In this document: piece by piece, positions 7 through 63,638 of the stretch
Position numbering within the stretch: the first letter of the stretch is position 1
Layout of the letters: the number at the start of each line of letters is the position of its first letter
NCBI GenBank assembly: GCA_965237405.1
Contig: OZ250139.1
Span: 1,562,820 to 1,626,819 of the forward strand
From: Vicinamibacterales bacterium
GTDB taxonomy: Bacteria > Acidobacteriota > Vicinamibacteria > Vicinamibacterales > UBA8438
Length of the DNA: 64,000 nt
Direction: 5' to 3'
Translations under genes and position numbers: made by a program
Notes under the pieces: model-generated
Database searches by the model: none
What the model was told of the DNA's origin: nothing
The model's input: only the letters and a program-made list of their open reading frames with translations

Positions 7-1599
7 ATGATCCTCATCGGATCGACCACGAAGGGGTGGTGGCCGACCGCCGAGGACGGTAAGGTCGGTGGGCATGACCAGCTCATCAGCTATCCATCTC
101 ACCCCTACGCGCTCAAGATGAACAGCGATTACTTCGTCGCTTTGGCCGAGTCCTTCGAGCGCACGTACGGCATCGAGTTTGAAGGCATCCGTGACGGAAT
201 CCCAAAGACTGACGCGGACCGCCTGGTCCAGTTCAAGACGAACGTCGACAAACTGATGTCGGTCATGGACCAGCGCGATGGGCTACGCGAATGGATCGCC
301 GAGCAGGTGATCGACATCGCGGAAATGGTTGATCGCAAGCCTTCCCTGAGAATCGATCCGACAGCTAACCCGTTTCTCGATGATCGTCTAAAGGTCGAGA
401 ATCTTCCGACCGACCCGTATGACGTCGTCGTCGAAAACGCATACTCCGGCGAAAACGTCAAACGCCGAATTGCTCTGTTCCTTGAACCAGGCCTAAAGAA
501 AGGCCCCCGACGTGCGATCAGCGAGATCGGAGCCTGGCTCAACTACGTGACAGACGGCCGCTTCATGACGATGGCTGCGGATCTGTCGGGGTCAATCAAC
601 ATCGAGAATGCCAACATCCTTGGCCACTACGACCCAGTCGACAATCCGTATGGAACGCGGCTCAAAGCCGCGATTCAAGAAGCCGGCAACGCATCGACAA
701 TCATCGGGCTGATTAGTCAGAATGCCTCCAGCGATCCCGATCAATTCGCGGGCATGTGGGGTATATCCGGCACCTACGGAGCCTTCACACCGCTGATGTA
801 CACGCCCGCGCGCGTCTTTTCCCAGATGAATCAGGACAGTCCGTTCAAGCTCGGAGTGTTGCACATCCTAGCTGGTCATTCCGGCCCGGAAACCGCGGCT
901 GACGCCCGCACACACTTTGGCATTTTTGCCCCGCAAGCCTGGACGCTCCTCCCTCGCGGCCAGGTCATCAACCTCTACTTCTGGGACTATAATGACGTGG
1001 CTCCGGGCTACTTTGCGGCCGTCCAAAAAGCACTCCAAATCAAGGAGATCGGCATCATCGTCATCCATGTGGCACGACCGGACTTCCCGGTATCCGATCG
1101 CTCAACCTTCGCCGACACCGACCTCAAAGCGGCGTCCAAGGGCCTCTACTTGATTCGAGAATACGACAATACCAAGCCCCCAATGGGAACGGTATTCGTG
1201 CAGGGTTCGAGTTCGACGATGAACCTCGTAAAAATCTTTCCACGGCTTGACGAGGACGGTATCAACGTTCGCATCGTGTCGGTCATCAGCACCGAGCTCT
1301 TCGGCTACCAGCCCCAAGAGTACCAGCAGAACTTATTACCAGCTTCGTCGCGCTACGACTGCATGGTCGTTAGTACGATGACCAAACGCGTTCCGCCGAT
1401 TCCGAACCTCGGACCCGTCACCGAGGACTACTCGCTCTATGCGGACTTCGACGATCGCTGGAGAAGCGGAGGAACGGAATCCGACGTTATTGCCGAATCC
1501 CACCTCGACGAGGAATCAATCTACCAGGGAATCGCCCGCTTCGCGCGAGAACGCGATGCCCGTCTCGATCGACAACGTACTGCACTGGAGACACTCTGA
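7..1599 (+). CDS. Transketolase-like / thiamine diphosphate-dependent enzyme, C-terminal part (gene begins before the window)
   Basis: Open frame from the window edge; motifs ADLSGS, TYGAF and GHSGPETAADARTH resemble the transketolase pyrimidine-binding and C-terminal domains. Confidence 0.75.
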   Translation: MILIGSTTKGWWPTAEDGKVGGHDQLISYPSHPYALKMNSDYFVALAESFERTYGIEFEGIRDGIPKTDADRLVQFKTNVDKLMSVMDQRDGLREWIAEQVIDIAEMVDRKPSLRIDPTANPFLDDRLKVENLPTDPYDVVVENAYSGENVKRRIALFLEPGLKKGPRRAISEIGAWLNYVTDGRFMTMAADLSGSINIENANILGHYDPVDNPYGTRLKAAIQEAGNASTIIGLISQNASSDPDQFAGMWGISGTYGAFTPLMYTPARVFSQMNQDSPFKLGVLHILAGHSGPETAADARTHFGIFAPQAWTLLPRGQVINLYFWDYNDVAPGYFAAVQKALQIKEIGIIVIHVARPDFPVSDRSTFADTDLKAASKGLYLIREYDNTKPPMGTVFVQGSSSTMNLVKIFPRLDEDGINVRIVSVISTELFGYQPQEYQQNLLPASSRYDCMVVSTMTKRVPPIPNLGPVTEDYSLYADFDDRWRSGGTESDVIAESHLDEESIYQGIARFARERDARLDRQRTALETL

Positions 1600-45132: not shown

Positions 45133-45315
45133 TCACGAAACTGTTAGGTTAATCAGCGAAGGGGAATGTCGTCGGCTTCCGAGAAATGATTCAAGCTAGC
45201 AAAACCCTGTGCTTCACGCTGGCACCTGGCGAGGTGGGTAGGACTATTCCCGAGTCGTGATGAAGGTTGCGAGAACCTCCATTACCTCCTCGTCAGGCGG
45301 ACGCGTGACAACCCC

Positions 45316-49329: not shown

Positions 49330-49534
49330 TGTCTCTTCTCAATTTACCCAGAAAGACCCTCGCTTCGGCTGCCACACTTCTTACAGTGGCGTCGGCGTGA
49401 GACGAGAACAACGGGTAGTGCAAGGGAATAGCCCCTTAGACTACGCACTAAGTGTCAGAAAAATGGAGGTGCCGCCAAAAAACCATCAAGTCCGGTTTCC
49501 AGGAAAGTCAGAACGGTTAGGCGCCGGCGAAAAT

Positions 49535-50395
49535 CTACCCTTGTGGTAACAAGAACTGCCATCCTTCGTCGAGTCGCCTCTGGTGAAGATCCCTTGCATA
49601 CGCAGCTCCGCACATGACTTTGTCTTGCGCCTTGCACGCCTCAAGGACCACCTGGTACATGGCCTCAACCTCCGGATGGGTCTGAATATCGCCAAAAGGC
49701 CCGAGCCCCATAGAGATACTTGTATCGCTGTGAACCATCAGGATCGCACTGATGGGCGCGGCGAGGATATCGTGGATGTTCTCGACGGCTTCAACCGATT
49801 CAATCATCGCCACCGCGAAAAGCTCCCCGGCAGGATTTAGGGGCCACACATCAGCCTTGCTGTGGTATTCGACGTCGTCCGCCAAGCGCCACAAACGGGT
49901 CGCTCTCCCAGGTCCCCAGCCCCGTTCACCTTTTGGCTCGGGGTACGCCGAGTCCAGAGTCTGCGGGTAACGCATGGCGCGCACAAACCTCCAAGCTTCT
50001 TCTCCAGTGTCGACGTGCGTGAGCGCGACGCCCAGAGTGCCCTGATCCAAGACCTGCTTGATGGCCCATCTGAAATCCTCGTCACCTTCCTGGGGAATGC
50101 GGACTACAGGCGTCACGCTGAGTCGGCCGTCCGGATCTCGGCTCTCTCCCATTTCAGCGAGCGTCGTTACCAACAGCTCCGCCGAGAACGGCGAATGCTC
50201 CATATCGATGAACCGCCATTCCTCGCCCGCGATCGCAGGCCGCCCTTCTTCGATCGCCTCGATAATCTTGTTTAGGCGGGGTCGCTCCTGCGGCGCCGGG
50301 CCACACGCGCTGAGGCTGGCCACAGCCAGAGCCACCCCGGCCACCAGTGTCACATGCGTCCACGCCATCAACCGTCGCAGTATTGAACCGTTCAT
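49535..50395 (-). CDS. HpcH/HpaI aldolase-family lipoprotein
   Basis: LSAC lipobox; FIDMEH, VVRIP and AMIES; shares WPLNPxGE with the 10933 gene; SD GGAGG before ATG 50395. Confidence 0.75.
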   Translation of the reverse strand: MNGSILRRLMAWTHVTLVAGVALAVASLSACGPAPQERPRLNKIIEAIEEGRPAIAGEEWRFIDMEHSPFSAELLVTTLAEMGESRDPDGRLSVTPVVRIPQEGDEDFRWAIKQVLDQGTLGVALTHVDTGEEAWRFVRAMRYPQTLDSAYPEPKGERGWGPGRATRLWRLADDVEYHSKADVWPLNPAGELFAVAMIESVEAVENIHDILAAPISAILMVHSDTSISMGLGPFGDIQTHPEVEAMYQVVLEACKAQDKVMCGAAYARDLHQRRLDEGWQFLLPQG

Positions 50396-50465
50396 CGGAC
50401 CTCCATAATCTCGTCGTTGTCCTCTGCCGATGTGACACAAAAAAACGTCACATAGCATACCGATT

Positions 50466-51386
50466 CTACTCTCCCGCGTTCGACGGCGCCATATAGCTCC
50501 GTTTGGCTCGAGCTGTCATACCTTCACGCACGACTCGGATATCAATTTCATGTATCCCACCATCACGATGCGACGCCGCGAAGGCCAGTACGTACTGGCT
50601 ATGCAACTCCTCTGACACCCGTTGGAACGTCTGAAGTAGTAAATCAGTTTTCTTGAGCAAAAAATACCCACCGCCCGTCTCTTCGGCCAGTCTCCGAAGG
50701 CGGCTATCCGGCCTTGTCCGTACCCTGCGAAAGCCGTCGAAATAATCTGCCTCTAGTCCGATCACGTAGATCATTACCTCATCTGCAATCGCACGCTTGA
50801 GCAAATCCCCCGGTCCCGCGTTAAAACTGCCGTGGTCCTGACCATCGGTCAGAACCAAGATAACCTTTCGCCCACCCACCTCCGCTAGCGCATCGAGGCC
50901 CACCGATATCCCGTCGAACAGGCGCGTGAACCACCCGTAAGTGAGCTGGGCGAGCGCGCGGTTCAGCCAATACACATCATCGATGAACACGGAAGGCATT
51001 AGGGAAACCGTGTCATGGAATGCCCCGATACGCGCGCGATCGCCAGGCAACATATATTTCAGGAAATTTTGGGCGCCAGCCACAATCAAAGACATGATGC
51101 CGCTCTTGGTCACGCTGACGCTTGTGTCAAGCATGATGACTACAGAAATCGGGCGAGTTTCCTTATCGAACAACACTAGTTCTTGCTTTCGCTCGTCGTC
51201 ATAGACGAGGAAGTCGCCTTCACCGAGGTCGCCAACGAGTCGGCCATTGTCGTCAGTCACCGTCACGTAGAGGTCGACCGTTTCGGTCCCACCCCGAAAG
51301 AGAGGCTGCTGGCCCGAAAGCGGTGCAATCTGCACCGTGCTCAAAAGCGCAAGTACGCCTGCGGACTGGATATCCTGCATGCGCAT
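50466..51386 (-). CDS. Secreted VWA domain protein
   Basis: DTSVS MIDAS motif, LTDGQD, LAEETGG and ELHSQYVL. Confidence 0.85.
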   Translation of the reverse strand: MRMQDIQSAGVLALLSTVQIAPLSGQQPLFRGGTETVDLYVTVTDDNGRLVGDLGEGDFLVYDDERKQELVLFDKETRPISVVIMLDTSVSVTKSGIMSLIVAGAQNFLKYMLPGDRARIGAFHDTVSLMPSVFIDDVYWLNRALAQLTYGWFTRLFDGISVGLDALAEVGGRKVILVLTDGQDHGSFNAGPGDLLKRAIADEVMIYVIGLEADYFDGFRRVRTRPDSRLRRLAEETGGGYFLLKKTDLLLQTFQRVSEELHSQYVLAFAASHRDGGIHEIDIRVVREGMTARAKRSYMAPSNAGE

Positions 51387-51491
51387 GCTACTAATCTATC
51401 ATTGTCGACAAGGATTTTCGAGTGACGGTGACCTACCGGGTAGCGCAAACGGACCGTTGCTTCAAACGATTACGCTAAGCACTTGAAAAAA

Positions 51492-51536
51492 TGGAGGCGG
51501 CGCCAGGATTTGAACCGGGGATGGATGTTTTGCAGT
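51492..51536 (-). repeat. att core: 3' half of tRNA-Cys(GCA), left island boundary
   Basis: Reverse complement ACTGCAAAACATCCATCCCCGGTTCAAATCCTGGCGCCGCCTCCA runs from the anticodon loop to CCA; 43 of 45 bases match 61185..61229; no 5' half present. Confidence 0.88.
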
Positions 51537-51641
51537 GCTCAGCACCGGCCGAAAACAAAGGGAAACTTGGGTGTTTTGTTGAGGTTCTCGCGTCCTAACT
51601 TGGTTGACGTTGGGCTGGTTTTGGCTGACAACGGCTCAGGG

Positions 51642-51663
51642 TTGGGCACAGTCTTGGGCACAG
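51642..51663 (+). promoter_or_regulatory. Putative integrase arm-type binding sites (TTGGGCACAG x2, 12-bp period)
   Basis: Direct repeat near the att core; related pairs at 61109..61130 and 61336..61356. Confidence 0.6.
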
Positions 51664-51670
51664 CACCCGC

Positions 51671-51696
51671 GTAACCCCCGTTCCCGTTGAACCGCC
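51671..51696 (+). repeat. Cassette-boundary element copy 1, with -35 TTGAAC (51687) and -10 TAGGCT (51710), 17-bp spacer
   Basis: GTAACCCCCGTTCCCGTTGAACCGCC, preceded by GCACCCGC. Confidence 0.85.
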
Positions 51697-51721
51697 CGCC
51701 GCCGCGCGCTAGGCTAGCGGT

Positions 51722-52255
51722 GTGTCTGAGGCACAGTCGATGAGTCGCATCGAAATCATCACTAACGACATTACGACACTGACGGTTGCTGCCATTGTGA
51801 ATGCCGCGAATGAAAGCTTGCTTGGTGGAGGTGGCGTCGATGGTGCCATTCATAGAGCTGCTGGACCAGCCTTGCTCGCTGAATGCCGAATGCTTGGTGG
51901 GTGTGCTACCGGAGCTGCGAAGATAACGGCTGGCTACGATCTCCCCGCGCGGCACGTGATTCATGCCGTCGGTCCACGTTGGCACGGTGGGACACGTGAC
52001 GAGTCTCGTTTACTAGCCGACTGCTATCGTCAGGCGCTTGAAATTGCGCGAACGCACAACCTGAAAACAGTGGCATTTCCGGCGATCAGTTGTGGAATTT
52101 ACGGCTATCCGGTGAAGGAGGCTGCCGGGATCGCGGTGCGAGAGGTGTCCCGGTTCTTGCGGCTGGAACCGAGCATTGAAAAGGTGTACCTCGTGTGTTT
52201 TGAGCCAAATGTTGAGGCCGCGTACCGCCAAGTACTTCAGTTGGCCGACTCGTAA
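51722..52255 (+). CDS. Macrodomain protein (O-acetyl-ADP-ribose deacetylase / ADP-ribosylhydrolase, YmdB-like)
   Basis: [33 protein letters not shown] and [13 protein letters not shown]; alternative start ATG 51740; stop TAA lies inside element copy 2. Confidence 0.95.
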
Positions 52256-52324
52256 CCCCCGTCGCCGTTGAACCGCCAGCCGCGCACTCGCGTGAGCCGT
52301 AACACCCGTCCCCATTGAACCGCC
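52252..52324 (+). repeat. Cassette-boundary element copies 2 and 3 back to back; copy 3 has -35 TTGAAC (52315) and -10 TAGGCT (52338), 17-bp spacer
   Basis: GTAACCCCCGTCGCCGTTGAACCGCC-A-GCCGCGCACTCGCGTGAGCC-GTAACACCCGTCCCCATTGAACCGCC. Confidence 0.85.
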
Positions 52325-52368
52325 CGCCGTCCCGCGGTAGGCTACACACCTCACCGGTCGCTGTCGGT

Positions 52369-52896
52369 ATGGACCAGGACATCCGTCACACCCGCAAACA
52401 GTGCCGACACATTCTGTGGCTACAACTCCATCTCCTGCTCGTCGCACTTCTGTGTCCGGAGTTGGTGTCTGGCCAGGTCGGCGACACCTTCTCTGGCGCG
52501 GTTATCCGTGTGGCCGATGGCGACACGATCTCGGTCCGGCGTGACGGTGCAACGGTGCGCATCAGACTCGACGGGATCGACACACCAGAATCCGACCAGC
52601 CGTTTGGGACACGTGCGAGTGCCTTTACGTCCGCGCAAGTTCTCAATAAGCGTGTCACTGTGCATGTGCGTGATGTAGACCGGTACGGACGGCTCGTCAG
52701 TCGGGTGCAAATCGATGACCAGGACCTCAGTGTGGCGTTGGTGACGGCGGGACTCGCGTGGCACTACACCCGGTATTCCGATGACCCCGTGTTGGCACGG
52801 GCGGAAGTGCAGGCTCGAACGACCAGAACAGGGCTTTGGAGTCAGCCGTCGCCGATGCCACCGTGGGAATTTCGACGACGTTCCCGTCCCCGTTGA
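52369..52896 (+). CDS. Thermonuclease (SNase) family protein, secreted
   Basis: VADGDTI, IRLDGIDTPE..QPFG, DRYGRLV, GLAW and GLWS..PPWEFR; start placed at ATG 52369. Confidence 0.93.
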   Translation: MDQDIRHTRKQCRHILWLQLHLLLVALLCPELVSGQVGDTFSGAVIRVADGDTISVRRDGATVRIRLDGIDTPESDQPFGTRASAFTSAQVLNKRVTVHVRDVDRYGRLVSRVQIDDQDLSVALVTAGLAWHYTRYSDDPVLARAEVQARTTRTGLWSQPSPMPPWEFRRRSRPR

Positions 52897-52898
52897 CC
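52883..52898 (+). repeat. Partial cassette-boundary element copy 4, overlapping the SNase stop codon
   Basis: CCCGTCCCCGTTGACC; its TGA is the stop of the SNase gene; followed by the inverted repeat ACTTTTGT...ACAAAAGT. Confidence 0.65.
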
Positions 52899-53055
52899 TG
52901 CTACTTTTGTACCGGGGGACAAAAGTCGGTAACAACCCCCGATCGCACCCTCAGTCTGCGAGTGGGAGGGTGCGTCCTCATCCTCGACGGGGTGCATCCA
53001 CCCGTCACGGTCAACCCCCTACACAACCCGTCGAAGGAGCCGTAAACTGATCGGC

Positions 53056-54615
53056 ATGGCTCCTTCAATACTCCGTCGGTTGGCACTCGCCTGGATGGTC
53101 GCGTTACTGGTGGGGGCCGCTCCGCTCGCCCAGACGCCCGAACCTGCTCAAGACGACGTCAAGGCGCTCCGAATCCTTGCAAATGCCGGGGACGGGGAGG
53201 CGCAGTACCTCCTTGGCATGAGGTACTACCACGGCGAGGATGTACCGCAGGACCACGTCGAAGCGGCGGCGTGGTTTCGCCAATCCGCGGAGCAAGGGAA
53301 TGCGGACCCGCAGTACACCCTTGGCGTGATGTACGCCAACGGCGAGGGCGTACCGCAGGACTTCGGCGAAGCGGCGGCGTGGTTTCGCCAAGCCGCGGAG
53401 CAAGGGGATGCGGACGCGCAGTACTACCTTGGCGAGGCGTACCGCACCGGCCGGGGCATGCCGGAAGACGACGTCGAAGCGGCGGCGTGGTATCGCCAAG
53501 CCGCGGAGCAAGGGTTTGCGGCCGCGCAGTACACCCTTGGCGTGATGTACGCCAACGGCGAGGGCGTGCCGCAGGACTTCGGCGAAGCAGCGGCGTGGTA
53601 TCGCCAAGCCGCGGAGCAAGGGGATGCGGACGCGCAGTACACCCTTGGCGTGATGTACGCCACCGGCGAGGGCGTGCCGCAGGACTTCGGCGAAGCAGCG
53701 GCGTGGTATCGCCAAGCCGCGGAGCAAGGGGATGCGGACGCGCAGTACAACCTTGGCGTGGCGTACCGCACCGGCCGGGGCGTGCCGGAGGACGACGTCG
53801 AAGCGGCGGCGTGGTATCGCCAAGCCGCGGAGCAAGGGGATGCGGCCGCGCAGTACACCCTTGGCGTGATGTACGCCAACGGCGAGGGCGTGCCGCAGGA
53901 CTTCGGCGAAACGGCGGGGTGGTATCGCCAAGCCGCGGAGCAAGGGCATGCGGCCGCGCAGTACTACCTTGGCGTGGCGTACGCCAACGGCGAGGGCGTG
54001 CCGCAGGACTTCGGCGAAGCGGCGGCGTGGTATCGCCAAGCCGCGGAGCAAGGGGATGCGGACGCGCAGTACAACCTTGGCGTGATGTACGTCAACGGCG
54101 AGGGCGTGCCGCAGGACTTCGGCGAAGCGGCGGCGTGGTATCGCCAAGCCGCGGAGCAAGGCCATGCGGAGGCACAGAACAACCTTGGCGTGATGTACGC
54201 CACCGGCGAGGGCGTGCCGGAGGACTTCGTCGAAGCGGCGGCGTGGTATCGCCAAGCCGCGGAGCAAGGGGATGCGGACGCGCAGTACAACCTTGGCGTG
54301 GCGTACCGCACCGACCGGGGCGTGCCGGAGGACTTCGTCGAAGCGGCGGCGTGGTATCGCCAAGCCGCGGAGCAAGGGGATGCGGCCGCGCAGTACAGCC
54401 TTGGCGTGATGTACGTCAACGGCGAGGGCGTGCCGCAGGACTTCGGCGAAGCATACAAATGGTTCAACCTCGCGACGACCTATGCCGACGCGTCGCAACG
54501 AGAAGAGCACGCCGAGGCGCGTGACACCGTCGCCGAGCATCTCACCCCGGAGCAACGCGCCGAAGGCCAGAAGCTGGTGCGGGAGTGGATCGCCGCGCAC
54601 CCGCGTGAGCCGTAA
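53056..54615 (+). CDS. Secreted Sel1-like repeat protein (12 repeats)
   Basis: Signal peptide; 36-aa units AQYxLGVMYxxGEGVPQDxxEAAAWYRQAAEQG encoded by near-identical 108-bp repeats; ends AAHPREP* inside element copy 5. Confidence 0.95.
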   Translation: MAPSILRRLALAWMVALLVGAAPLAQTPEPAQDDVKALRILANAGDGEAQYLLGMRYYHGEDVPQDHVEAAAWFRQSAEQGNADPQYTLGVMYANGEGVPQDFGEAAAWFRQAAEQGDADAQYYLGEAYRTGRGMPEDDVEAAAWYRQAAEQGFAAAQYTLGVMYANGEGVPQDFGEAAAWYRQAAEQGDADAQYTLGVMYATGEGVPQDFGEAAAWYRQAAEQGDADAQYNLGVAYRTGRGVPEDDVEAAAWYRQAAEQGDAAAQYTLGVMYANGEGVPQDFGETAGWYRQAAEQGHAAAQYYLGVAYANGEGVPQDFGEAAAWYRQAAEQGDADAQYNLGVMYVNGEGVPQDFGEAAAWYRQAAEQGHAEAQNNLGVMYATGEGVPEDFVEAAAWYRQAAEQGDADAQYNLGVAYRTDRGVPEDFVEAAAWYRQAAEQGDAAAQYSLGVMYVNGEGVPQDFGEAYKWFNLATTYADASQREEHAEARDTVAEHLTPEQRAEGQKLVREWIAAHPREP

Positions 54616-54625
54616 CACCCGTCCC
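54592..54625 (+). repeat. Cassette-boundary element copy 5, cut by IS6
   Basis: GCCGCGCACCCGCGTGAGCCGTAACACCCGTCCC followed directly by the IS6 terminal repeat. Confidence 0.8.
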
Positions 54626-55432
54626 GGTATTGTCAGGTTGAAGGCGAAGGGATCAGAGTAGTGGGATGGACAGCGACGCCTCCAGCTACCACGGATATCG
54701 ATTCCCCGCCGCCATCATCGCCCACGCCGTCTGGCTCTACTTTCGGTTCAGCCTGAGTTTCCGGAATGTCGAAGACCTCCTCGCCCAGCGCGGGATCACG
54801 GTCACTTACGAGACCATTCGTCAATGGTGTCGAACATTCGGTTGTGCTTACGCCCGACGACTCCGGAAACGCCGTGGCCACCTCGGCGATACGTGGCATT
54901 TCGACGAACTGTTCGTGACGTTGCAAGGCCGCCGACAGTATCTGTGGCGCGCCGTCGATGAGGACGGCGACGTCCTCGACATCCTCGTGCAAGCGCGACG
55001 AAATCGGCGAGCCGCTGTCCGATTCTTCCGGAAGCTGCTGAAGCGCCAGGGATGTGTCCCGCGCCGGTTGGTCACGGACAAGCTGCGGAGCTACCCAGCA
55101 GCCCGCCGCATCGTGATGCCTTCTGTGGTCCACGTCACGGACCAGTACGCCAATAACCGCGCTGAAGTCTCGCATCAACCGACTCGACAGCGCGGACGCC
55201 AGATGCGCCGCTTCAAGTCGACCACCCATCTGCAACGCTTCGCGTCCGTCCACGGCGCCATACAGAATCTCTTCCGGGTCGGTCGACATTTGCTGCGGTC
55301 GGTGCATCACCGTTCGCTTCGCACGCGAGCGTTCGTCGAATGGGAGGCGGTGACGTGTGCCTGCTGACTGACGGCGGAGGCCCGGCTCGATCGGGGAGAA
55401 AAGAGCCCTTCTTCGATCAAGTTGACAGTGCC
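54626..55432 (+). mobile_element. IS6-family insertion sequence (807 bp)
   Basis: Terminal IRs GGTATTGTCAGGTTGA and TCAAGTTGACAGTGCC enclose the transposase; no target duplication seen. Confidence 0.88.
54666..55367 (+). CDS. IS6-family DDE transposase
   Basis: YHGYRFP..IIAHAVWLYFRFSLSFRNVEDLL, WHFDE, YLWRAVD, VTDK and NNRAEVSH. Confidence 0.95.
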   Translation: MDSDASSYHGYRFPAAIIAHAVWLYFRFSLSFRNVEDLLAQRGITVTYETIRQWCRTFGCAYARRLRKRRGHLGDTWHFDELFVTLQGRRQYLWRAVDEDGDVLDILVQARRNRRAAVRFFRKLLKRQGCVPRRLVTDKLRSYPAARRIVMPSVVHVTDQYANNRAEVSHQPTRQRGRQMRRFKSTTHLQRFASVHGAIQNLFRVGRHLLRSVHHRSLRTRAFVEWEAVTCAC

Positions 55433-55523
55433 CCGCGGCATACAATGCCCTCGATCTCAACCTGACAAGCCATGGCACTAGCAGTTGGCTCGCAACTCGT
55501 CGACCTTTCAAAAAGGCTTTAGC

Positions 55524-57530
55524 GTGGATCATCGTCCATGGCTCGTCTTTCTCGTCTGGTGCAGCGTCGTGACGCTGTCACCTGGCCAGGCCTGGGCTCA
55601 ATATGGCGCGACCGATGGCGAGTGGCGCAGCTACGGCGGTGACCTGGGCAGCACCAAGTACTCGCCGCTCGACCAGATCGACGCCGGCAACTTCAGCGAC
55701 CTGCGACCCGCATGGCGGTGGCAGTCGGCTGACGGGCTGCTCGATCTGGACGCGATCAGAGCGAAGCTACCGCGCCTGGGGGCTTCCCGCCTCCCGGGGC
55801 GCCAATTCGGAATCCGGATGTTCCAGGCTACGCCGCTGATGATTGACGGAGTGCTCTATATCTCGACGGCGCTGCACCAGGTGGCGGCGATCGACGCCGG
55901 AACCGGCGAGCCCCTCTGGGTCCACGATCCGGAGGCCTACCTCGCGGGCCTGCCGACTCACTTCTACAATTCGCGGGGTGTCGCGTACTGGGCCGACGGT
56001 GACGATGCACGGATCTTCTTCGGCACCAACGGGGGCTACTTGCTGGCCCTCAATGCTCGCACCGGAGAGCCAATTCGAGACTTCGGAGACGACGGACGCG
56101 TCGATCTCATGGAGGACATTCCGCGGGCCACCCGTGGTGAAACCAATCACAACGGGCGAACCCTGGTCGGGGTCGCCTCGCCGCCGATCGTGGTGCGCGA
56201 CGTCGTCGTCACGCCAACGATCATCTCCGATCGCGCGATCCGCAAGGAAGCGCCACCCGGGTGGCTGAAGGGCGTCGACGCTCGCACCGGCGAGGTCAAG
56301 TGGATATTCCGCACCGTGCCACAGGCGGACGATTTCGGCGTCGAGACCTGGCTAAACGAATCGTGGCGATACTCGGGGAATACCAACGTCTGGACGATGT
56401 TGAGCGCCGACAACGAGCTTGGGTACGTTTTCCTGCCGACCGGTGCCCCGACCGGCGACTACTACGGCGGCCACCGACCAGGTGACAACCTGTTCTCGCA
56501 GAGCGTCGTCGCCCTCGACATCGAAACCGGCCAGCGGATGTGGCACTTCCAGGCCGTCCACCATGGGGTCTGGGACTACGACTTTCCCGCCGCCCCGAAC
56601 CTCGTCGACATCGTGGTCGACGGTCGCCGCATCAAGGCGGTCGCTCAGGTCAGCAAGCAGGGCTTCACCTACGTCGTCGACCGACAGACCGGTGAACCGG
56701 TGTGGCCGATCGAGGAGCGTCCCGTCGAAACCGACACCAACCTCGAGGGTGAAGTCCTCTCTCCGACCCAGCCGTTCCCGACCAAGCCGCCGCCGTTCGA
56801 GTATCAGGGCGTCACCATCGACGATCTGGTCGACTTCACCCCCGAGATCCGGGCGATGGCCGTTGAGGCGGTGAAGGCGTTCCGACTCGGGCCGCTTTAC
56901 TCACCGCCGATGCTTAGCGTGGAGGGTGAATTGCAGGGAACCATTCAGCGCCCGCATGTCGGAGGTGGCGCAAGCTGGACCGGCGCCGCAGTCGATCCAG
57001 AAACCGGCATGCTTTATGTGCCATCGGAAAACCGATTCTCGGTAATCAAGTACTACACACCCGATCTGGCCCGAGGTGGGAACCTCCGGTTTACGATGCG
57101 CGGACTCGCGGCCGGGACCCAGCCCCAGATGCCTCAGGGGCTGCCGCTGCTGAAGCCGCCGTACTCACGAATGACGGCGATCGACCTGAACGAAGGCCAG
57201 CACGCTTGGATGCAGGCCAACGGCAACGGCGACCGGTACCGGAATCATCCGCTGCTGCGGGATCTCGACTTGTCCCCGCTGGGCGGAGAGGGACACGGGG
57301 GACCGGTTCTCACCAAGACACTGCTCGTGAGCGCGCTCTCGGCTGGCGGCCGCGACGGTGGTCCTCGGCTCGTGGCCCGCGACAAGACCACCGGTGAGAT
57401 CGTGGGGTCGGTCGATCTGCCGGCCGGCGCCATCGGCACGCCGATGACCTATCTGCACGAGGGCAAGCAGTACATCGCGCTGACGATCGGCGGCGACGTG
57501 CCCGAATTGATCGCGCTGGCGCTGCCATGA
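55524..57530 (+). CDS. PQQ-dependent dehydrogenase, glucose/quinate dehydrogenase-like
   Basis: Paralog of the 43168 gene: KYSPLDQI, WHFQAVHHGVWDYD and SPTQPFP; start placed at GTG 55524 (ORF track starts at 55485). Confidence 0.9.
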   Translation: MDHRPWLVFLVWCSVVTLSPGQAWAQYGATDGEWRSYGGDLGSTKYSPLDQIDAGNFSDLRPAWRWQSADGLLDLDAIRAKLPRLGASRLPGRQFGIRMFQATPLMIDGVLYISTALHQVAAIDAGTGEPLWVHDPEAYLAGLPTHFYNSRGVAYWADGDDARIFFGTNGGYLLALNARTGEPIRDFGDDGRVDLMEDIPRATRGETNHNGRTLVGVASPPIVVRDVVVTPTIISDRAIRKEAPPGWLKGVDARTGEVKWIFRTVPQADDFGVETWLNESWRYSGNTNVWTMLSADNELGYVFLPTGAPTGDYYGGHRPGDNLFSQSVVALDIETGQRMWHFQAVHHGVWDYDFPAAPNLVDIVVDGRRIKAVAQVSKQGFTYVVDRQTGEPVWPIEERPVETDTNLEGEVLSPTQPFPTKPPPFEYQGVTIDDLVDFTPEIRAMAVEAVKAFRLGPLYSPPMLSVEGELQGTIQRPHVGGGASWTGAAVDPETGMLYVPSENRFSVIKYYTPDLARGGNLRFTMRGLAAGTQPQMPQGLPLLKPPYSRMTAIDLNEGQHAWMQANGNGDRYRNHPLLRDLDLSPLGGEGHGGPVLTKTLLVSALSAGGRDGGPRLVARDKTTGEIVGSVDLPAGAIGTPMTYLHEGKQYIALTIGGDVPELIALALP

Positions 57531-57807
57531 ACCCCAGAGTTGGCGTTGGTACATCGACCCATTGAATTCACCAGCACTTCATACTCTTAGCTTTCGCATA
57601 CGATTCAGACACACACGGTAAAGAGTAAGCACGCAGTCTGTCTCCGGCACGAATCCTACTATTCAATCAAGAAGTTCGTGATTGTCCAATCGGCAGGATT
57701 CTCTCCAGAGCCCTTCGTTTCGCAATAAAAATTGGTTCATATGGTGGCTCCAAAGGCGTTCTGAGAATCAACGTAGGACACCACCACGGTACCTTAAAAG
57801 CGGAAGA

Positions 57808-57857
57808 CGGTTCAACGGGGACGGGGGTTACGGCTCACGCGGGTGCGCGGCGTCCCA
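57808..57857 (-). repeat. Cassette-boundary element copy 6 (minus strand) with Sel1-tail stub WDAAHPREP*
   Basis: Reverse complement TGGGACGCCGCGCACCCGCGTGAGCCGTAACCCCCGTCCCCGTTGAACCG. Confidence 0.85.
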
Positions 57858-57888
57858 TTAGCGGGTGCTTCAAGAGCCCTCGTTTGCG

Positions 57889-59109
57889 CTAGTTCCTCTT
57901 GCGCAGCTTCACCCGAGCGTGTTCGCTGTACGCCAGATACTTGTTCACTGCTTCCCGCTGGTCATCCGGCCAGGCGTCCGAGTCGGCAAGCTTCTTCAGT
58001 TTGCTCGATGAGAGCTGATCGACTTGGTCCCAGAGTCCGATCGACTTGAGGACACGCTCAAGCTCGAGCCGCGGTTCGCTCCCTGCTTTTGGCACGTCAA
58101 CCGATGTGGTAGTGGAGACAGTGGCGTAGTGTTCAGCACCGTAGATCGAGGCATTGCCGGTCTCGGCCGAGTACGCCGTCAGCTTCTCCCGTATCTCGTC
58201 AGCCCGTTCATCCATCTCACCTGTAATACGCTGCTTCTCGTCCCTCAGGCTCACGAGTTCATCCACCAGCGCTGACGCCTCGGAGGCGGTGATGACCGAG
58301 ACTAGTAGTGTCTCCTCCTGGTTCTCCATTTCGTAGAGGTTCGCGAACTCTGGGCACAGCGGACGGTATTCACACCAGTCGCAGAGCGCGCTGGTCTTCG
58401 TCGGTAGGTTCCTTCTCGCCACCGCAGCATCAACGGTCTCGATCAGACTCGCGGTCTGTTCGGCCATGTTCTGCAACTGTTCATCGGTCCGCTGCGACCA
58501 CACATCCTCGTCAAATCGCACGAAATGCCAGACCAGGTCGATCTTCTTCAGGTCGGGATAGCGCTGCTTGATTCCGAGCATGTAGAGCGCCAACTGCCGG
58601 TCATTCTTGGTTGCGTTCGGCGTAGGTAACTTGCCGCTGGTCTTGTAGTCGTGGATCACGAAGTGTTTATTGCCGACTTTCTCAAGACGGTCTATGTAAC
58701 CCATCACCTTCCCGCCACCGGGCAGGTCTATGAAGACCTTGCACTCCAGGTCGATGGTGATGCCCTGGTCGAACGGCTGATAGCGATCCCAGTACTGCTC
58801 GACCCACTTCTGTCCGTTCGACCGGTAGTGCTCGACCTCCAACTCTTGCTTGATGACGCGAATCTCGTCTTCCCATTTCGCTTCCCACAGCGCCTGGTAC
58901 TTCTGCACGAGTTCTTCCTTGGTCGCAACGCGGCCGTCGCGTGCCAACCTGTACAGCCATTCCAGAGCGTCGTGGACCCTGCTCCCCACAAATGCCTCGA
59001 TGGTGGTGCCGAGGGGTGCCTGGACTTGGTCCACATACCTCAACTTGTACTGGAACGGGCAGTTTTCGTAACTGGAAAGCCGGGAGTGCGAGTAGAGAGT
59101 CGAGGACAT
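57889..59109 (-). CDS. PD-(D/E)XK nuclease, Cas4/AddB/RecB-like, with a putative four-cysteine Fe-S staple
   Basis: SHSRLSSYENCP..Y, GSRVHDALE, GYIDRL, IHDYKT, QLALY and CDWCEYRPLCP. Confidence 0.9.
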   Translation of the reverse strand: MSSTLYSHSRLSSYENCPFQYKLRYVDQVQAPLGTTIEAFVGSRVHDALEWLYRLARDGRVATKEELVQKYQALWEAKWEDEIRVIKQELEVEHYRSNGQKWVEQYWDRYQPFDQGITIDLECKVFIDLPGGGKVMGYIDRLEKVGNKHFVIHDYKTSGKLPTPNATKNDRQLALYMLGIKQRYPDLKKIDLVWHFVRFDEDVWSQRTDEQLQNMAEQTASLIETVDAAVARRNLPTKTSALCDWCEYRPLCPEFANLYEMENQEETLLVSVITASEASALVDELVSLRDEKQRITGEMDERADEIREKLTAYSAETGNASIYGAEHYATVSTTTSVDVPKAGSEPRLELERVLKSIGLWDQVDQLSSSKLKKLADSDAWPDDQREAVNKYLAYSEHARVKLRKRN

Positions 59110-59183
59110 TAATTGCGATAGACTGGCTTCGTCTCATGCTCCCACTATGGTGGCGAGCGACCCGATCCTACCGCGGCGCACCG

Positions 59184-59226
59184 GGCGGTTCAACGGGGAC
59201 GGGGGTTAGTTACGTGGGTGGGCGGC
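59184..59226 (-). repeat. Cassette-boundary element copy 7 (minus strand), with -35 TTGAAC and -10 TAGGAT (59165-59170), 17-bp spacer
   Basis: Reverse complement GCCGCCCACCCACGTAACTAACCCCCGTCCCCGTTGAACCGCC; the promoter faces the PD-(D/E)XK gene. Confidence 0.85.
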
Positions 59227-59569
59227 GGCATACCTCGGTTGCAGCTACTGGACGGTCCGAGACTGGCTCCTGGCCGGTCACATCCCATCGGTCGACCTTC
59301 CGCCCATGCGGCCTCGAACCGGCGACAGGAAAAGGCTGCGCCTGCGAAGGGTACTGATCGACAAGTGTGATCTGGACGCCTTCATCGAGACAAGGAAAAC
59401 GGGAACGGGTAGTCCAGACACGGGAGGCGTGGAAGAAGGCGCGAAGGTTGTCGAAACCTCAGCGCCGGCAGAGCAGCGGGAAACGCTTAACAATATAGTC
59501 ATGTTCCTTGAGATGTGTGCCCAAGCTGTGCCTAGACATCCAGGCGAACTGTTTGTCTCCACGCCGTGA
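59222..59569 (+). pseudogene. 5'-truncated excisionase-type HTH gene
   Basis: Frame reads AAAYLGCSYWTVRDWLLAGHIP...RRVLIDKCDLDAFIE; in-frame stop at 59207 inside element copy 7 and no start codon before the HTH. Confidence 0.7.
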
Positions 59570-59619
59570 CATGGAACACTTGATAACATAAATAGGTCTA
59601 TTTATTATCTGCATGTCAC

Positions 59620-59805
59620 ATGAGCCCCAGAAAGCTCTACAACTTTCTGATCGATTCGGACCTCGCTGTGGGGTTGAAGACCGTCAAGGCCCGCGACGGA
59701 ATCTCGGAGAGCGAGCAAGTCCTGAGGGCGATCAGGGACTGGCTGAGCAAGAAGGGGGTCATGAAAACGGGACGCACGCGGGTGGTACCCCGCGCGCGCC
59801 CCTAA
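59620..59805 (+). CDS. Ribbon-helix-helix (CopG-like) regulator
   Basis: KLYNFLID strand followed by helices ...GISESEQVLRAIRDWL; directly upstream of the integrase. Confidence 0.7.
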   Translation: MSPRKLYNFLIDSDLAVGLKTVKARDGISESEQVLRAIRDWLSKKGVMKTGRTRVVPRARP

Positions 59806-59909
59806 ACCCGTCAGCAGCGTGCACTGCCGACGAGCCTGCCGCGTATTTCTCACACACGCAGACTCGCCGGCCTCACCCGGCACCGAACGGCACCAGGGGG
59901 GCAACCGTA

Positions 59910-61077
59910 ATGGGCAGTCTCTACAAGAGGACGTACAAGACTTCGGACGGTGAGATCAGGGAGCGGCCAACTTGGTGGCTGAAGTATCACCAGAATGGCC
60001 GGGCGATTCGCGAGAGCACTGGCACCACCAAGGAGACCGTCGCCAAGCGGATGCTGCGGCTCCGGGAGGGCGACGTCGAGCGTGGCATTCCCGTCAACCC
60101 GCGCATGGACCGGCTGACGTTTAAAGAGACCGCCCAGGACGTGATCCACGACTACGAAACGAACGGCAAGAAGTCGCTTCGGGTGCTGCGCCAGCGCATC
60201 AATCACCTGCGGCCCTTCTTCGGCGAGGGCCGACGAATGGCCGGTGTTCGAGTCAGCGACATCCGCGCTTACATCGTGCACCGGCAACGCTCGTACATCG
60301 TGACCGGCATGGGTGACCACCAACGTAAACGGCAACCATCGAACGGCCAGATCAACCGGGAACTGACCACCTTGAAGCGGATGTCCAGCCTCGCTGTCCA
60401 GTCCAAGAAGCTGGCGCGGAAGCCCCACATCCCGCTACTAGCCGAGGCTCCGGCACGGTTCCGGGTTCTTCGAGCGGGAACAGCTGGACGCGGTGTGTCG
60501 GCATCTCCCCTCCCCTATTACGGCGGTGGTGCGGTTCGCCCACCTCACAGGGTGGCGGGTCAACTCGGAGGTCCTAGCCCTTCGATGGGCCAACGTCGAT
60601 TGGACCGGAGAGAGCATCCGCCTGGAGGCCGGTACGACGAAGAGCGGAGAGCCCCGCGTATTCCCGTTCACCGACGAACTTCGGGACCTCCTGCGCGAGC
60701 GATGGGCCGGGCACGAGGAACTGAGACGCTCGGGCACGATCTGCCCGTCCGTGTTCCATCGGGCCGGTAAGCCAATCAAGAGCTTCATCAAGATCTGGCG
60801 ATCCGCGTGCAGGGCCGCCGGCTGTCCGGGCCGCATCCCCCATGACCTCCGGCGAACAGCCGTCCGAAATCTCGAACGCGCCGGCGTGCCACGCTCCACG
60901 GCTATGGCGATGGTTGGACACAAGACTGAGTCCATCTACCACCGATATGCCATCGTTGACGAAACCTCCCGCCGGGAGGCGGCTCAAAAAGTGAACCTGT
61001 TTGGTCGCGAGAACAGTTCCGAACACCGCCCACCACTCAGCCGAGCCACCGGCACTGAGAAGCCCAGGGAAAGTTGA
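59910..61077 (+). pseudogene. int: Phage-type tyrosine integrase with a single +1 frameshift at ~60459
   Basis: N-part MGSLYKR..WWLKY..RESTGT..INRELTTLKR; removing one T gives APARSGFFEREQL, continuing to TGWR, TTK, HDLRR, GH and YHRY catalytic residues. Confidence 0.88.
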
Positions 61078-61108
61078 AAAGCGCCACCTTGGACCGGATG
61101 GCCCGCCC

Positions 61109-61130
61109 TGGGCACAGTTCCTGGCACAGT
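61109..61130 (+). promoter_or_regulatory. Putative integrase arm-type sites (GGCACAGT x2, 12-bp period)
   Basis: TGGGCACAGT-TC-CTGGCACAGT between int and the att core. Confidence 0.6.
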
Positions 61131-61184
61131 GACCCTCTCAGCCGGTCACCGGCGTCGAAAACCGTCGAAAACGCTGATGAAAAA

Positions 61185-61229
61185 TGGAGGCGCCGCCAGG
61201 ATTTGAACCGGGGATGGAGGTTTTGCAGT
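61185..61229 (-). repeat. att core: 3' half of tRNA-Cys(GCA), right island boundary
   Basis: Reverse complement ACTGCAAAACCTCCATCCCCGGTTCAAATCCTGGCGGCGCCTCCA; no D-arm or 5' acceptor strand adjacent. Confidence 0.88.
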
Positions 61230-61335
61230 CCCTCGCCACCCGCAAGAAACGTTCGAGAAAATGCTAGTTTCTGAACGAACTCGAACGACACCAGGTGCTG
61301 GAGTGAGCCAGAGTGAGCAGGAGTTGGCTCCTCGC

Positions 61336-61356
61336 GGGCATAGTTCTGGACATAGT
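61336..61356 (+). promoter_or_regulatory. Putative arm-type sites of the next island (GGGCATAGT / GGACATAGT)
   Basis: Same 12-bp period and similar offset from the att core as 51642..51663. Confidence 0.5.
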
Positions 61357-61454
61357 CTTTGCTGATTTAGACTAACCCTTATGGTTATGGTTGCTAATCT
61401 GTGAAATGATCTTGAACATATGTCGAGAGACGCCGATCTTACCGCCGCGACCGC

Positions 61455-63638
61455 TCACTTCTCGCAGACCCAGCCGCCGATCCCCTCACGCGTCTCGCCG
61501 CACGGGGCGCTATCAGCTGGCACGTCGTACGAGTAATACACCCTGAAGTCACTGCCGGCCTGTTTGTTGTAGTCGAACACGGCGATGGGATCACGCGGCT
61601 GGGTGTCGCGAGGCCTCATCCCCCAATTCATCGAGATCGACTCGGCGGGCCAATCGTTCCCCGCCTGTGGGCTAAAAGTCTCGAACACGGAGCTTCGCAC
61701 TTCCGCGGTCTTGACCGGCGCCCCACCGGCGGCGTTGGAGGTGTACGCCGTCGCAATGCTGACGCCGATCTGGCTCGCGAAATACCCGTTCTCGACCACC
61801 AATGAGCCGACCCCTCGTCCCGGTGCCGGCGTCTGGCCGTAGAAGAACGGACTGAGGACACCGACGCGCATGGCCTGCACATCGGCGCCGGTGACCTCAA
61901 CCTGTCTCGAGATGTAGTTGCCGATCGCGATACCGACAGGATTCTCCGCGGGGTCGTCGAGGACTGCGAGGTCGCCGCGGACCGTGACTGCACTGAGGGT
62001 GAGCTGATCCGGCGGGATGCCGTTGAAGCCGTGGTGCGAGGGGTGCCAGACCGTGAAGTTGGAGACCGCGCCGTTCCAGACCCACTCGAGGCCCGTCTCG
62101 AACCTGCCATACGCTTCGTTGTTCGTGAACTCGAGCACCGCTGCGGCGGTCATGTCGACGCGGACCCATTCATCCGCCTGGCTCGTATCGGCTCCCTTGA
62201 ACGCCGGGGTGCGGACACTGCGGAGTCCCTCCGGCAGTGCGAACCCGTAGGTGGCGGCGCTGGCGGCGACGTTGTTGCGGATGTAGTTGTTCGGCCCGCG
62301 GAACCAAAAGCCCGCGCCCTCGATGCCGATGCCTCTCGTTGCCCCCGCGTACCCGGCACTAGACGCCGAGCTGCGCTGTCCCGCCGACTGGAGGGAGAAG
62401 TTATGGTCGAACACGTTGAAGCTCTCGCTCCCATCCTCGGTGGCGATGCCGGCGCCACGGGTGTCGTAAACGACGTTGTCCTGGATGAGGCCATAGTGGC
62501 TGCGATGAACTGTGATACCCCATTTGGGCGCACCTACGACGGCGTTGCCGATGAGCGTGAACTGGTGGCCGTTGGTCGGCGTTGTCCGTGGCCCGAACGC
62601 GTGGTGGAAGTGAACGGCATAGCGGCCGAGCTGATTCGACCCGAGTCGTCCCACTTGGCCGCGTGTATCGAAGCGCGTGCTATCGACCGCGCCATTCTTC
62701 GTGCGGCCGAGGTCTCTGAACGCCGCGTACCGAAGATCGACATCGGCACGTGAGATGAATATGGTGTGCCCGCGCGTGCCATCGGGGTTTTCTGAGCGCA
62801 CCGTCACGTTGCGGCTCAAATTGCCGACGTGCGGCAGCAGCTCCAGCTCGCCGCCCACGCTGCGGGCCCCACGGTGGTCAAACCTGAGCGGCGTGGCTAG
62901 CGTGACCGTGGTGCCGGAGACCGCCGCGATCTGAACCCTCTCTGTCTGCGACCGGTATCGATCCCCGCTCTCGCCGGCGCGGAGCTGCCGTGTGTCGGGG
63001 ATGACGACGTAGTCGCCAGGTGCCCACCCGGAGACGGGCTGCTCCACCTCGAGTGTCGTGTGACCCGCACGTGGCTCGCGGCTGAGCCGGACGAACGTCG
63101 GGGTCTTCTCCGCGCCATGCATGGTCACTTTTCCCAGGCCCACTAGGCCGTTCCCGACCTGGCCCGGATCCGTGCGAGGGTCGATCGGCTGGTCGGTGAT
63201 CGCAACCTCAGCCGTCACCCGATGGCCGATCGGTTGTGTTGAACTGCCGATCTCGAGATGGCCACCCTCGAGGACCATCAGGGTTCCGACGCGCATGCGA
63301 GTGTCGGCGTCAGTCGCGAAGGCCAGATGCCCCCGCACCTCGACGCAGTCCAACGTCGCGTCGGCGACAACGTCGTAGGTCACCTTGTGGGATGCCGCGA
63401 TCGCGACCTTGTCGCCCGCGGCGGGAACGGCGCCGGTCGACCAGACTTTCGAATCCGACCACGCGCCGCTACCGGCGCTCACGACAGTGGCGTTCGCGCA
63501 GAGCAACGGCACGCCGCGCGGCATGCCGCTCACCCTAGGCGTATGTGGGAGAGTGTCCTGTGCGACACCGAGGTCGGCAACGCTGAGGAGCATCCCCATC
63601 GCGCCCGCGAGTGGCAGTATGCGTCTTACGCCCATCAT
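61455..63638 (-). CDS. Secreted G8-domain protein with right-handed beta-helix repeats
   Basis: SGAWSDSKVWSTGAVPAAGDKVAI..VTYD G8 motif, VGNLSRNVTVRS, LGRYAVHFHH, ITVHRS and EDGSE; start placed at ATG 63638 before the signal peptide (ORF track starts at 63863). Confidence 0.85.
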   Translation of the reverse strand: MMGVRRILPLAGAMGMLLSVADLGVAQDTLPHTPRVSGMPRGVPLLCANATVVSAGSGAWSDSKVWSTGAVPAAGDKVAIAASHKVTYDVVADATLDCVEVRGHLAFATDADTRMRVGTLMVLEGGHLEIGSSTQPIGHRVTAEVAITDQPIDPRTDPGQVGNGLVGLGKVTMHGAEKTPTFVRLSREPRAGHTTLEVEQPVSGWAPGDYVVIPDTRQLRAGESGDRYRSQTERVQIAAVSGTTVTLATPLRFDHRGARSVGGELELLPHVGNLSRNVTVRSENPDGTRGHTIFISRADVDLRYAAFRDLGRTKNGAVDSTRFDTRGQVGRLGSNQLGRYAVHFHHAFGPRTTPTNGHQFTLIGNAVVGAPKWGITVHRSHYGLIQDNVVYDTRGAGIATEDGSESFNVFDHNFSLQSAGQRSSASSAGYAGATRGIGIEGAGFWFRGPNNYIRNNVAASAATYGFALPEGLRSVRTPAFKGADTSQADEWVRVDMTAAAVLEFTNNEAYGRFETGLEWVWNGAVSNFTVWHPSHHGFNGIPPDQLTLSAVTVRGDLAVLDDPAENPVGIAIGNYISRQVEVTGADVQAMRVGVLSPFFYGQTPAPGRGVGSLVVENGYFASQIGVSIATAYTSNAAGGAPVKTAEVRSSVFETFSPQAGNDWPAESISMNWGMRPRDTQPRDPIAVFDYNKQAGSDFRVYYSYDVPADSAPCGETREGIGGWVCEK

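Follow-up and report, generated by a model that had tools for sequence, protein, structure and literature searches.

Putative mobile promoters (PMPs), as described by Matus-Garcia, Nijveen and van Passel in 2012, are homologous upstream sequences found before unrelated genes, some of them common to different genera (PMC3575422). The same work names Correia elements, ERIC and REPINs as promoter-bearing (PMC3575422). Where two further sources treat cassette expression, integron cassettes are described as generally promoterless and reliant on Pc (PMC11014356, PMC13108822). The locus considered here lies in a window (i.e., the whole stretch of DNA that was analysed) of 64,000 nucleotides (nt) from a Vicinamibacterales bacterium (contig OZ250139.1, positions 1,562,820 to 1,626,819 of the forward strand), in which three promoter-like sites of the form TTGAAC-17-TAGGCT or TTGAAC-17-TAGGAT occur. 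All three fall within copies of one repeat family, which we take, with modest confidence, to be a portable promoter-plus-leader module standing at the joints of single-gene island units in the Vicinamibacterales, and thereby a large family of putative mobile promoters. The genome of this bacterium (4.65 Mb) is denoted G000 below, and related genomes G003-G040.

According to this proposal, the right half of the repeat would most likely be a housekeeping-sigma promoter with its 5' untranslated region, belonging to the downstream gene and moving with it, and each gene of an island array would form its own transcription unit. The core and the left part of the repeat would show where one promoter-plus-gene unit has been swapped for another, in the same genome or between genomes; the simplest route would be that island DNA is transferred horizontally and then recombines within the ~90 nt that the copies share.

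The repeat family and its promoter-like sites

Direct reading and a pattern match both place the three sites where the original prediction had put them. The first consists of TTGAAC at 51687-51692, a 17-nt spacer and TAGGCT at 51710-51715 (plus strand, copy A of the repeat); the second, of TTGAAC at 52315-52320, a 17-nt spacer and TAGGCT at 52338-52343 (plus strand, copy B2); and the third, of TTGAAC from 59193 to 59188, a 17-nt spacer and TAGGAT from 59170 to 59165 (minus strand, copy F). As predicted, each faces the next gene, namely the macro-domain gene (ATG 51740), the staphylococcal-nuclease-like (SNase) gene (ATG 52369) and the PD-(D/E)XK nuclease gene (ATG 59109), with predicted leaders of ~18, 19 and 49 nt, and the 17-nt spacing supports the sigma70-like geometry ascribed to them. 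Weak hexamers of such quality are common in any genome, and a consensus scanner expects 1.6 stronger sites per this 9-kb stretch, which would speak for three unrelated sigma70-like matches arising by chance. Nevertheless, TTGAAC-N17-TAGGMT has three exact matches in the window against none in 100 dinucleotide shuffles and all three belong to the same family, which refutes this explanation and leaves it next to no probability.

Three further details of the original prediction held only in part. The spacers do keep their length, but rather than being different sequences they are homologous versions of a single one (CGCCCGCCG..C.CGCGG); their equal lengths are due to common descent, and therefore are not independent events and are not counted here as functional evidence. 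The letters TTGAAC-18-TACCGT given for a sixth copy (copy E) are present on the minus strand (57815 to 57810 and 57791 to 57786), but the copy comprises the left half only, and TACCGT lies in unrelated DNA. Finally, a GTG is found at 51722, 6 nt after the first -10 box, where a leaderless start had been proposed, yet GAGG at 51728-51731 stands before an in-frame ATG at 51740, and in the frame opened by the GTG the Pfam macro domain begins only at residue 26. A leaderless GTG start for the macro-domain gene is thus unlikely; given the in-frame ATG after GAGG, a leaderless message is not needed, and a transcription start near 51722 leaves a leader of ~18 nt.

The anatomy of the family was obtained from an alignment of 53 copies anchored on TTGAAC. 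The repeat is an oriented, non-palindromic, intergenic element of ~90 nt, and TTGAAC-17-TAnnnT forms its right half. Its invariant core reads CCCGTCCCCGTTGAACCG, and the best-kept block, CCCCGTCCCCG-TTGAAC-CGCCCGCCG, is conserved at 81-100% per column, with TT in 53/53 copies. The left part, of ~45 nt (..GGGACGCCGCGCACCCGCGTGAGCCGTAAC..), usually follows directly on the stop codon with which the upstream gene ends; in some copies it supplies that stop codon itself, and in some genes it is read as the final codons. To the right of the core, a G+C-rich stretch fills the 17-nt spacer up to a TAnnnT hexamer; this is usually TAGGCT, whose letters are conserved at 72% (T), 72% (A), 60% (G), 72% (G), 60% (C) and 68% (T). 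Many copies continue with a shared leader of ~40 nt (AGACCTCTCGCCGTTCGT..GTGGTCGGAGGA), which ends in GGAGG and is followed by ATG.

Other modules can follow the core as well, most often the hairpin ACTTTTG-NNN..NNN-CAAAAGT seen in copy C (52899-52935), whose upper three pairs co-vary over 16 copies from several genomes, with a score of 0.247 against 0.115 in shuffles, 0/500 of which score as high. The hairpin right part of copy C folds with a z of -1.81, and this alternative module alone shows folding. Elsewhere, the hairpin module occurs in G000 at 79.8 kb, 119 kb, 1419 kb and 4232.8 kb and at loci L076-L132, and has no Rfam match; in G016, gene-less hairpin units stand 120-142 nt before the next core.

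A 16-nt core, searched with at most one mismatch, occurs 50 times in G000, against 0 and 2 times for the reversed control, and a profile made from these copies yields 77 hits in G000. Seven copies are in the window. The copies of G000 form clusters at ~80, 850-868, 1259-1304, 1419-1480, 1614-1622 (the window), 2311-2320, 2954-2967, 3525, 3765 and 4222-4233 kb, several of which begin beside tRNA genes or integrase remnants. A 1361-nt IS3-family element is likewise abundant in G000, with 27 copies at 99-100% identity (e.g., 1447178-1448538). Small DUF5681 open reading frames (ORFs) recur in the arrays, at 1429314-1429598 of G000 and at L210:6149-6463 and L210:12685-12984 in the array of G016; the two G016 frames lie immediately upstream of a copy, one ending at the core and the other ~40 nt before it.

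An exact 18-mer of the repeat is found in 12/41 related genomes, G000 included, against 0-1 for controls. Its distribution is patchy: within the genus, 4/10 other genomes carry it. Copy numbers reach 39 in G006, 46 in G016, 23 in G011, 18 in G022 and 11 in G040, the last from another family of the order. In a one-genome-per-species collection, multiple copies occur only in Vicinamibacterales/Vicinamibacteria records, and elsewhere single chance matches without flanks are obtained. A plasmid collection gave no match to the 82-nt element, and viral contigs gave two single chance matches only, without flanking parts. The metagenome scan returned 118 stretches, and 67 distinct copies were readable among the 80 stretches listed.

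Evidence on promoter function

TANNNT lies exactly 17 nt past TTGAAC in 35/69 anchored G000 copies, compared with 18 nt in four, 16 nt in two and 19 nt in one (de-duplication dropped window copy B2, with which the count is 36/70). For the metagenome copies, TANNNT is found at 17 nt in 23/67, and in none at 16 or 18 nt. Over the whole genome, there are 46 occurrences of TTGAAC-N17-TANNNT, compared with 8 of the control.

The hexamers were also compared with the sequences before the host's tRNA genes. TTGNNN-16..18-TANNNT is present upstream of 8/55 tRNA genes, against 1/55 downstream and 0.77 per 55 random 100-mers, which is an enrichment of about tenfold. The -10 boxes found there include TACGCT, TAGCAT and TACACT, 10-66 nt before the tRNA. 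The hexamers of the repeat fit this predicted promoter pattern of the host's own tRNA genes. Furthermore, a co-oriented ORF is faced by 32/42 copies with a -10-like hexamer and by 13/27 copies without one, on crude ORF calls (longest non-overlapping frames). The distance from TTGAAC to the start codon has a median of ~67 nt, and the downstream genes are of unrelated families, including macro, SNase, PD-(D/E)XK, ACC-like carboxylase, MscS, aldo-keto reductase, LRR and others. We infer from these properties that RNA polymerase would start at the right half of the repeat.

RNA evidence comes from assembled metatranscriptome contigs with a depth of 2-9, so it cannot show starts (nor depth or strand), and parts without cover are uninformative. 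Contigs of the PD-(D/E)XK gene stop at 59110 and 59110 (two runs of one study) and at 59117 (another study), and none of the RNA pieces listed crosses copy F. These ends are weakly compatible with a start at copy F. A related-strain contig reads through copy E, left part and core alike, beyond which its sequence no longer matches. Contigs of the SNase gene carry, at 52314, the G of a second genomic copy, and come from read-through, from DNA in the library or from that second copy. For copies B2 and E, the RNA is read-through or DNA in the library.

A number of observations weigh against a working promoter. The PD-(D/E)XK contigs end 41-48 nt short of the predicted start at ~59158, and the SNase contigs reach 52311 and 52281, through the -35 and -10 of copy B2. 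The window hexamers match the E. coli consensus at 7-8/12 positions only, below the threshold of the consensus scanner, whose single call in 51000-60000 is TTGATA-17-TATTAT at 59580-59608, before a small gene beside the integrase. In the 53 aligned copies, conservation peaks on the 26 nt around the -35 (81-100%), for which a promoter by itself does not account; the letters of the -10 (60-72%) are kept no better than their neighbours, and a selection signature sought on its T-A---T letters was absent. Spoiled -10 boxes occur (CAGGCT, GAGGCT and TCGGCT), and in the G016 orthologue of copy F the spacer is 13 nt long. Lastly, no -10-like hexamer is present in 27/69 G000 copies (16-19 nt) and in 38/67 metagenome copies (12-25 nt scanned), which means the core also stands without a promoter. 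The idea that each slot has a promoter of its own is supported, in the form of promoter-like sequence, for the copies with TANNNT at 17 nt; about half of the copies are without a -10.

These findings raise the alternative that the repeat holds no working promoter at all, and that its asymmetric, C-rich 26-nt block is a binding site for a regulator or silencer of island genes, an unstructured Rho-loading tract insulating neighbouring genes or a young selfish repeat, to which the likeness to TTGAAC and TAGGCT is incidental. Besides the weak hexamers, the copies without a -10, the RNA contigs crossing copies E and B2 and the conservation peak on the core, it would account for an element that is less structured than its shuffles and that has, by count on the consensus, ~55% C against 21% G over ~33 nt of the sense strand. 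On the other hand, a co-oriented ORF is found more often ahead of copies that have a -10-like hexamer than of those without, the motif fits the house pattern at tRNA genes, many copies have the common leader with its terminal GGAGG after the -10, and the spacer and -10 stay with the downstream gene (see below). The exact core is also kept across genera and in a second family of the order; this speaks for function more than for drift, although recent transfer could look alike. Weighing both sides, we consider the absence of a working promoter somewhat unlikely, and prefer the portable promoter-plus-leader module.

Exchange of units and the recombination-site question

Units bounded by the repeat are common to different genera. 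The unit running from the core of copy E to the core of copy F, which comprises the PD-(D/E)XK gene and its promoter-like right part, has a 96% identical counterpart at G016:3434121-3435524, in a different genus. The neighbours there are a transposase on one side and a BrxC-like gene on the other, and the flanks past both cores differ. The SNase unit (52281-52896) is 99% identical at G000:2311386-2312001 and 95% identical in G016, with identity ending at GTTGA of copy C, and the macro unit is 97% identical in G009, where it stands behind a full left part. In comparison, ordinary orthologues among these genomes are 70-80% identical.

The position of the joints was mapped from all pairs among 159 copies (including chance singletons from unrelated genomes) that share one flank at >=85%. 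When only the downstream flank is shared, the spacer and -10 follow the downstream gene in 5/5 pairs (0.83-1.0). When only the upstream flank is shared (six pairs), the left part follows the upstream gene in three (0.85-1.0), and the other three are at the family background (0.73). Break points scatter from about -45 to +17 around TTGAAC. These results place the joints at or left of the invariant core and not between the -35 and the -10, which is where the original prediction had asked whether the crossover falls. Its suggestion of a promoter assembled across the junction is likewise not supported: given that the spacer and -10 stay with the downstream gene in all five informative pairs, the promoter-like part is not assembled on integration.

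A gene with 98% identity between G000 and G016 follows two versions of the module that differ in their leaders, and its third copy is without the module. The ACC-like gene has orthologues in two repeat-free genomes, where unrelated upstream DNA and no repeat is found. Empty sites were not revealed by same-genus synteny, which is too eroded for this (orthologues at 70-80% identity, with genes scattered). A point against exchange by core-bounded units comes from the 46-kb array of G016, which has five unique segments in common with G000 at >90%: only the PD-(D/E)XK unit is core-bounded at both ends, and the other four are not. Exchange is therefore not confined to core-bounded units. We infer that units would have moved by recombination, in the manner set out above.

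The core of an integron recombination site has the consensus GTTRRRY, and attC sites are imperfect inverted repeats that form a hairpin in single-stranded DNA. GTTGAAC at the centre of the repeat fits GTTRRRY, and its two T's are those kept in every aligned copy. It is thus conceivable that the core is a site-specific recombination site for an unrecognised recombinase, with the promoter as secondary cargo at the start of many cassettes. Single genes of one orientation form arrays in which a copy bounds each gene, such as the six in a row, each with a preceding copy, at 1448-1459 kb of G000. Left-only and right-only copies both exist, and overlap only in ~CCG-TTGAAC-CG; the core is where the PD-(D/E)XK and SNase units stop, although their contexts differ; and short gene-less units bounded by cores lie 120-142 nt apart in G016. 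In addition, the consensus element closes all three reading frames, with TAA at -15, TGA in TTGAAC and TAG in TAGGCT.

Searches for the corresponding machinery, however, gave negative results. The best match to the integron integrase (TIGR02249) in G000 scores 102.6 bits against a cut-off of 265, and none of five carrier genomes is over the cut-off (0/5, best 84.3 bits). The core has no dyad symmetry, and four promoter-type copies folded as DNA on both strands showed no attC-like hairpin (z from -0.30 to +2.13, with 66-198/200 shuffles folding at least as well). Beside the arrays of G000 (87 ORFs) and G016 (60 ORFs), no dedicated recombinase was found, only transposases of ordinary insertion sequences (IS3, IS6, IS256 and IS4/5-type) and fragments of island integrases. 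Y1 transposases (PF01797, IS200/RAYT) do not follow the repeat either: there are none in carriers G006, G011, G022 and G040, whereas G003, with two copies, has 61 matches and G004, with none, has 27. Together with the scattered break points, these results make a site for an unrecognised recombinase, with the promoter as its cargo, quite improbable in our view.

Two established types of element were considered and rejected. The integron frame of the original prediction is not supported, in view of the integrase scores in G000 and five carriers, the absence of attC-like folding in the four promoter-type copies and the promoter-like sequence that 35/69 copies have of their own. The miniature inverted-repeat transposable element (MITE) or REP-RAYT type is rejected given that promoter-type copies have no excess folding and that the Y1 transposase does not track the repeat.

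A related possibility is a cassette system without an integron integrase, in which single promoter-equipped genes would be swapped between arrays and genera at the asymmetric 26-nt core, cut by an unrecognised enzyme or by tRNA-targeting island integrases. The tRNA-Cys attachment repeat of the window's island has TTGAACCG in common with the core. We regard such a system as doubtful, and retain the module moving with its downstream gene as the best explanation of the family.

The island of the window and comparison with known systems

The seven copies in the window sit in an island bounded by two 50-nt direct repeats. Copy A (51670-51716, plus strand), with a short left part TAACCCCCGTTCCCG before its TTGAAC, spacer and TAGGCT, lies directly after the attL arm of the island and upstream of the macro-domain gene (51740-52255, plus strand; likely start ATG 51740, longest frame from GTG 51722). 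Copy B1 (52251-52281, plus strand) reads TAACCCCCGTCGCCG, TTGAAC (52268-52273) and CGCCAGCC, and is then broken off without a -10; its TAA is the stop codon of the macro-domain gene. Copy B2 (52282-52343, plus strand), with its left part at 52282-52314, is upstream of the SNase gene (52369-52896, plus strand; likely start ATG 52369). The TGA stop codon of this gene lies within the core of copy C (52883-52935, plus strand), where CCCGTCCCCGTTGACC is followed by the alternative hairpin right part ACTTTTGT..ACAAAAGT, without a 17-nt promoter.

Copy D (54586-54628, plus strand) is reached by the Sel1-repeat gene (53056-54615, plus strand; 12 repeats of 108 nt), whose final codons and stop are formed by the left part of the copy, with 54586-54615 reading ..REWIAAHPREP and stop. 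Its core is cut by an IS6-family insertion sequence (54626-55433, transposase 54666-55367), an identical copy of which is at G000:2810062-2810869. On the minus strand, the PD-(D/E)XK gene (57889-59109) lies between copies F and E. Copy F (59165-59232), with its left part from 59232 to 59194, is upstream of this gene, and copy E (57786-57857), with a full left part and core, is downstream of it and is followed by unrelated A+T-richer DNA.

The direct repeats that bound the island, at 51487-51536 and 61180-61229, are copies of the 3' part of tRNA-Cys, and the integrase (59911-61077) is just inside the second. The intact tRNA-Cys(GCA) gene is at G000:1629624-1629697, 2.8 kb past the end of the window. 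A tRNA scan called no tRNA at the island ends, which are partial tRNA-Cys copies. A further direct repeat of the tRNA-Cys 3' part is at 49458-49477, and the three repeats suggest a tandem insertion of islands at tRNA-Cys. The tyrosine integrase is apparently split over frames: its N-terminal, SAM-like part belongs to frame 59613-60770 and its catalytic part to frame 60493-61077, whereas the frame begun by the ATG at 59911 reaches a stop within 190 nt. An excisionase-like frame at 59210-59566 (plus strand; HTH_17, E 1.2e-5, 25.9 bits, just below the cut-off of 27) starts at the edge of copy F, is without profile positions 1-6 and lacks a start codon up to 59306, so that it looks as if cut by the neighbouring unit. 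Paired words similar to TTGGGCACAG are found just inside both island ends (51631-51663 and 61109-61129) and may possibly be integrase arm sites. Two metagenome contigs (loci L214 and L279) have a similar word pair, TGTGGGCAAC twice, after the core.

Other features of the window include two paralogues of a PQQ-dependent dehydrogenase, at 55485-57530 and 44001-45300, with ~72-77% identity between them. The island paralogue shares 92% identity with a gene of G004, which carries no copy of the repeat. At 46135-46377, a 51-nt unit (GGAGCCTCCTCCCTAGGCGACGC..) occurs four times in tandem within a long minus-strand ORF. A search of 49000-62000 for known RNA families, with E up to 1, yielded one chance match (49059-49098), and none on the repeat, the hairpin module or the tRNA-like repeats.

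If the right half is a working promoter, accessory genes (nucleases, macro, Sel1, ankyrin, LRR and metabolic enzymes) arrive with their own expression signal and would be expressed regardless of position or neighbour, which is the opposite of the logic of integrons. This would explain units that are common to genera at 95-97% identity and yet functional. We found no paper on repeats or promoters in Vicinamibacteria, and no transcription start maps for Acidobacteria; given its size, of tens of copies per genome in several genera, the family could yield a promoter consensus for the latter. The repeat is also a clean marker for the flexible genome of Vicinamibacterales. If the core were a recombination site, it would belong to a new cassette-exchange system, and a cassette system without an integron integrase would be a second answer, this time equipped with promoters, to the problem addressed by integrons.

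In comparison with integron arrays that have homogeneous attC sites, such as the Vibrio cholerae repeats of sedentary chromosomal integrons, the family likewise shows mostly single co-oriented genes, one conserved repeat with a GTTRRRY-like heptamer, some gene-less units and ORFs that run into the repeat. It differs in having no integron integrase, no hairpin-forming inverted repeats and many scattered clusters instead of one platform, and about half of its units carry promoter-like sequence of their own, unlike Pc-dependent integron cassettes. Correia elements, ERIC and REPINs are, like this repeat, short dispersed intergenic repeats able to supply a -35 and a -10 to their neighbours. They either form palindromes or carry terminal inverted repeats, and REPINs are paired with a cognate RAYT transposase, whereas the present repeat is asymmetric and unstructured and has no co-occurring Y1 transposase.

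The closest resemblance is to PMPs, which also consist of similar non-coding DNA upstream of unrelated genes, include the -35 region, in some cases span genera or families, and move in a manner that is unexplained (PMC3575422). The likeness is judged here by the 77 profile hits of this family, whose downstream genes belong to unrelated Pfam families; the authors' own threshold is 80% identity over 50 nt in the region from -150 to -50. Most PMP families are pairs (PMC3575422), whereas all 77 hits are in one genome, and the family comes from an uncultured lineage outside the reach of the complete genomes of 2011 on which the PMP study was based. Unlike PMPs, it stands at the joints of single-gene units in tRNA-linked islands; its left half is linked to where the upstream gene ends, and its right half comes in alternative forms.

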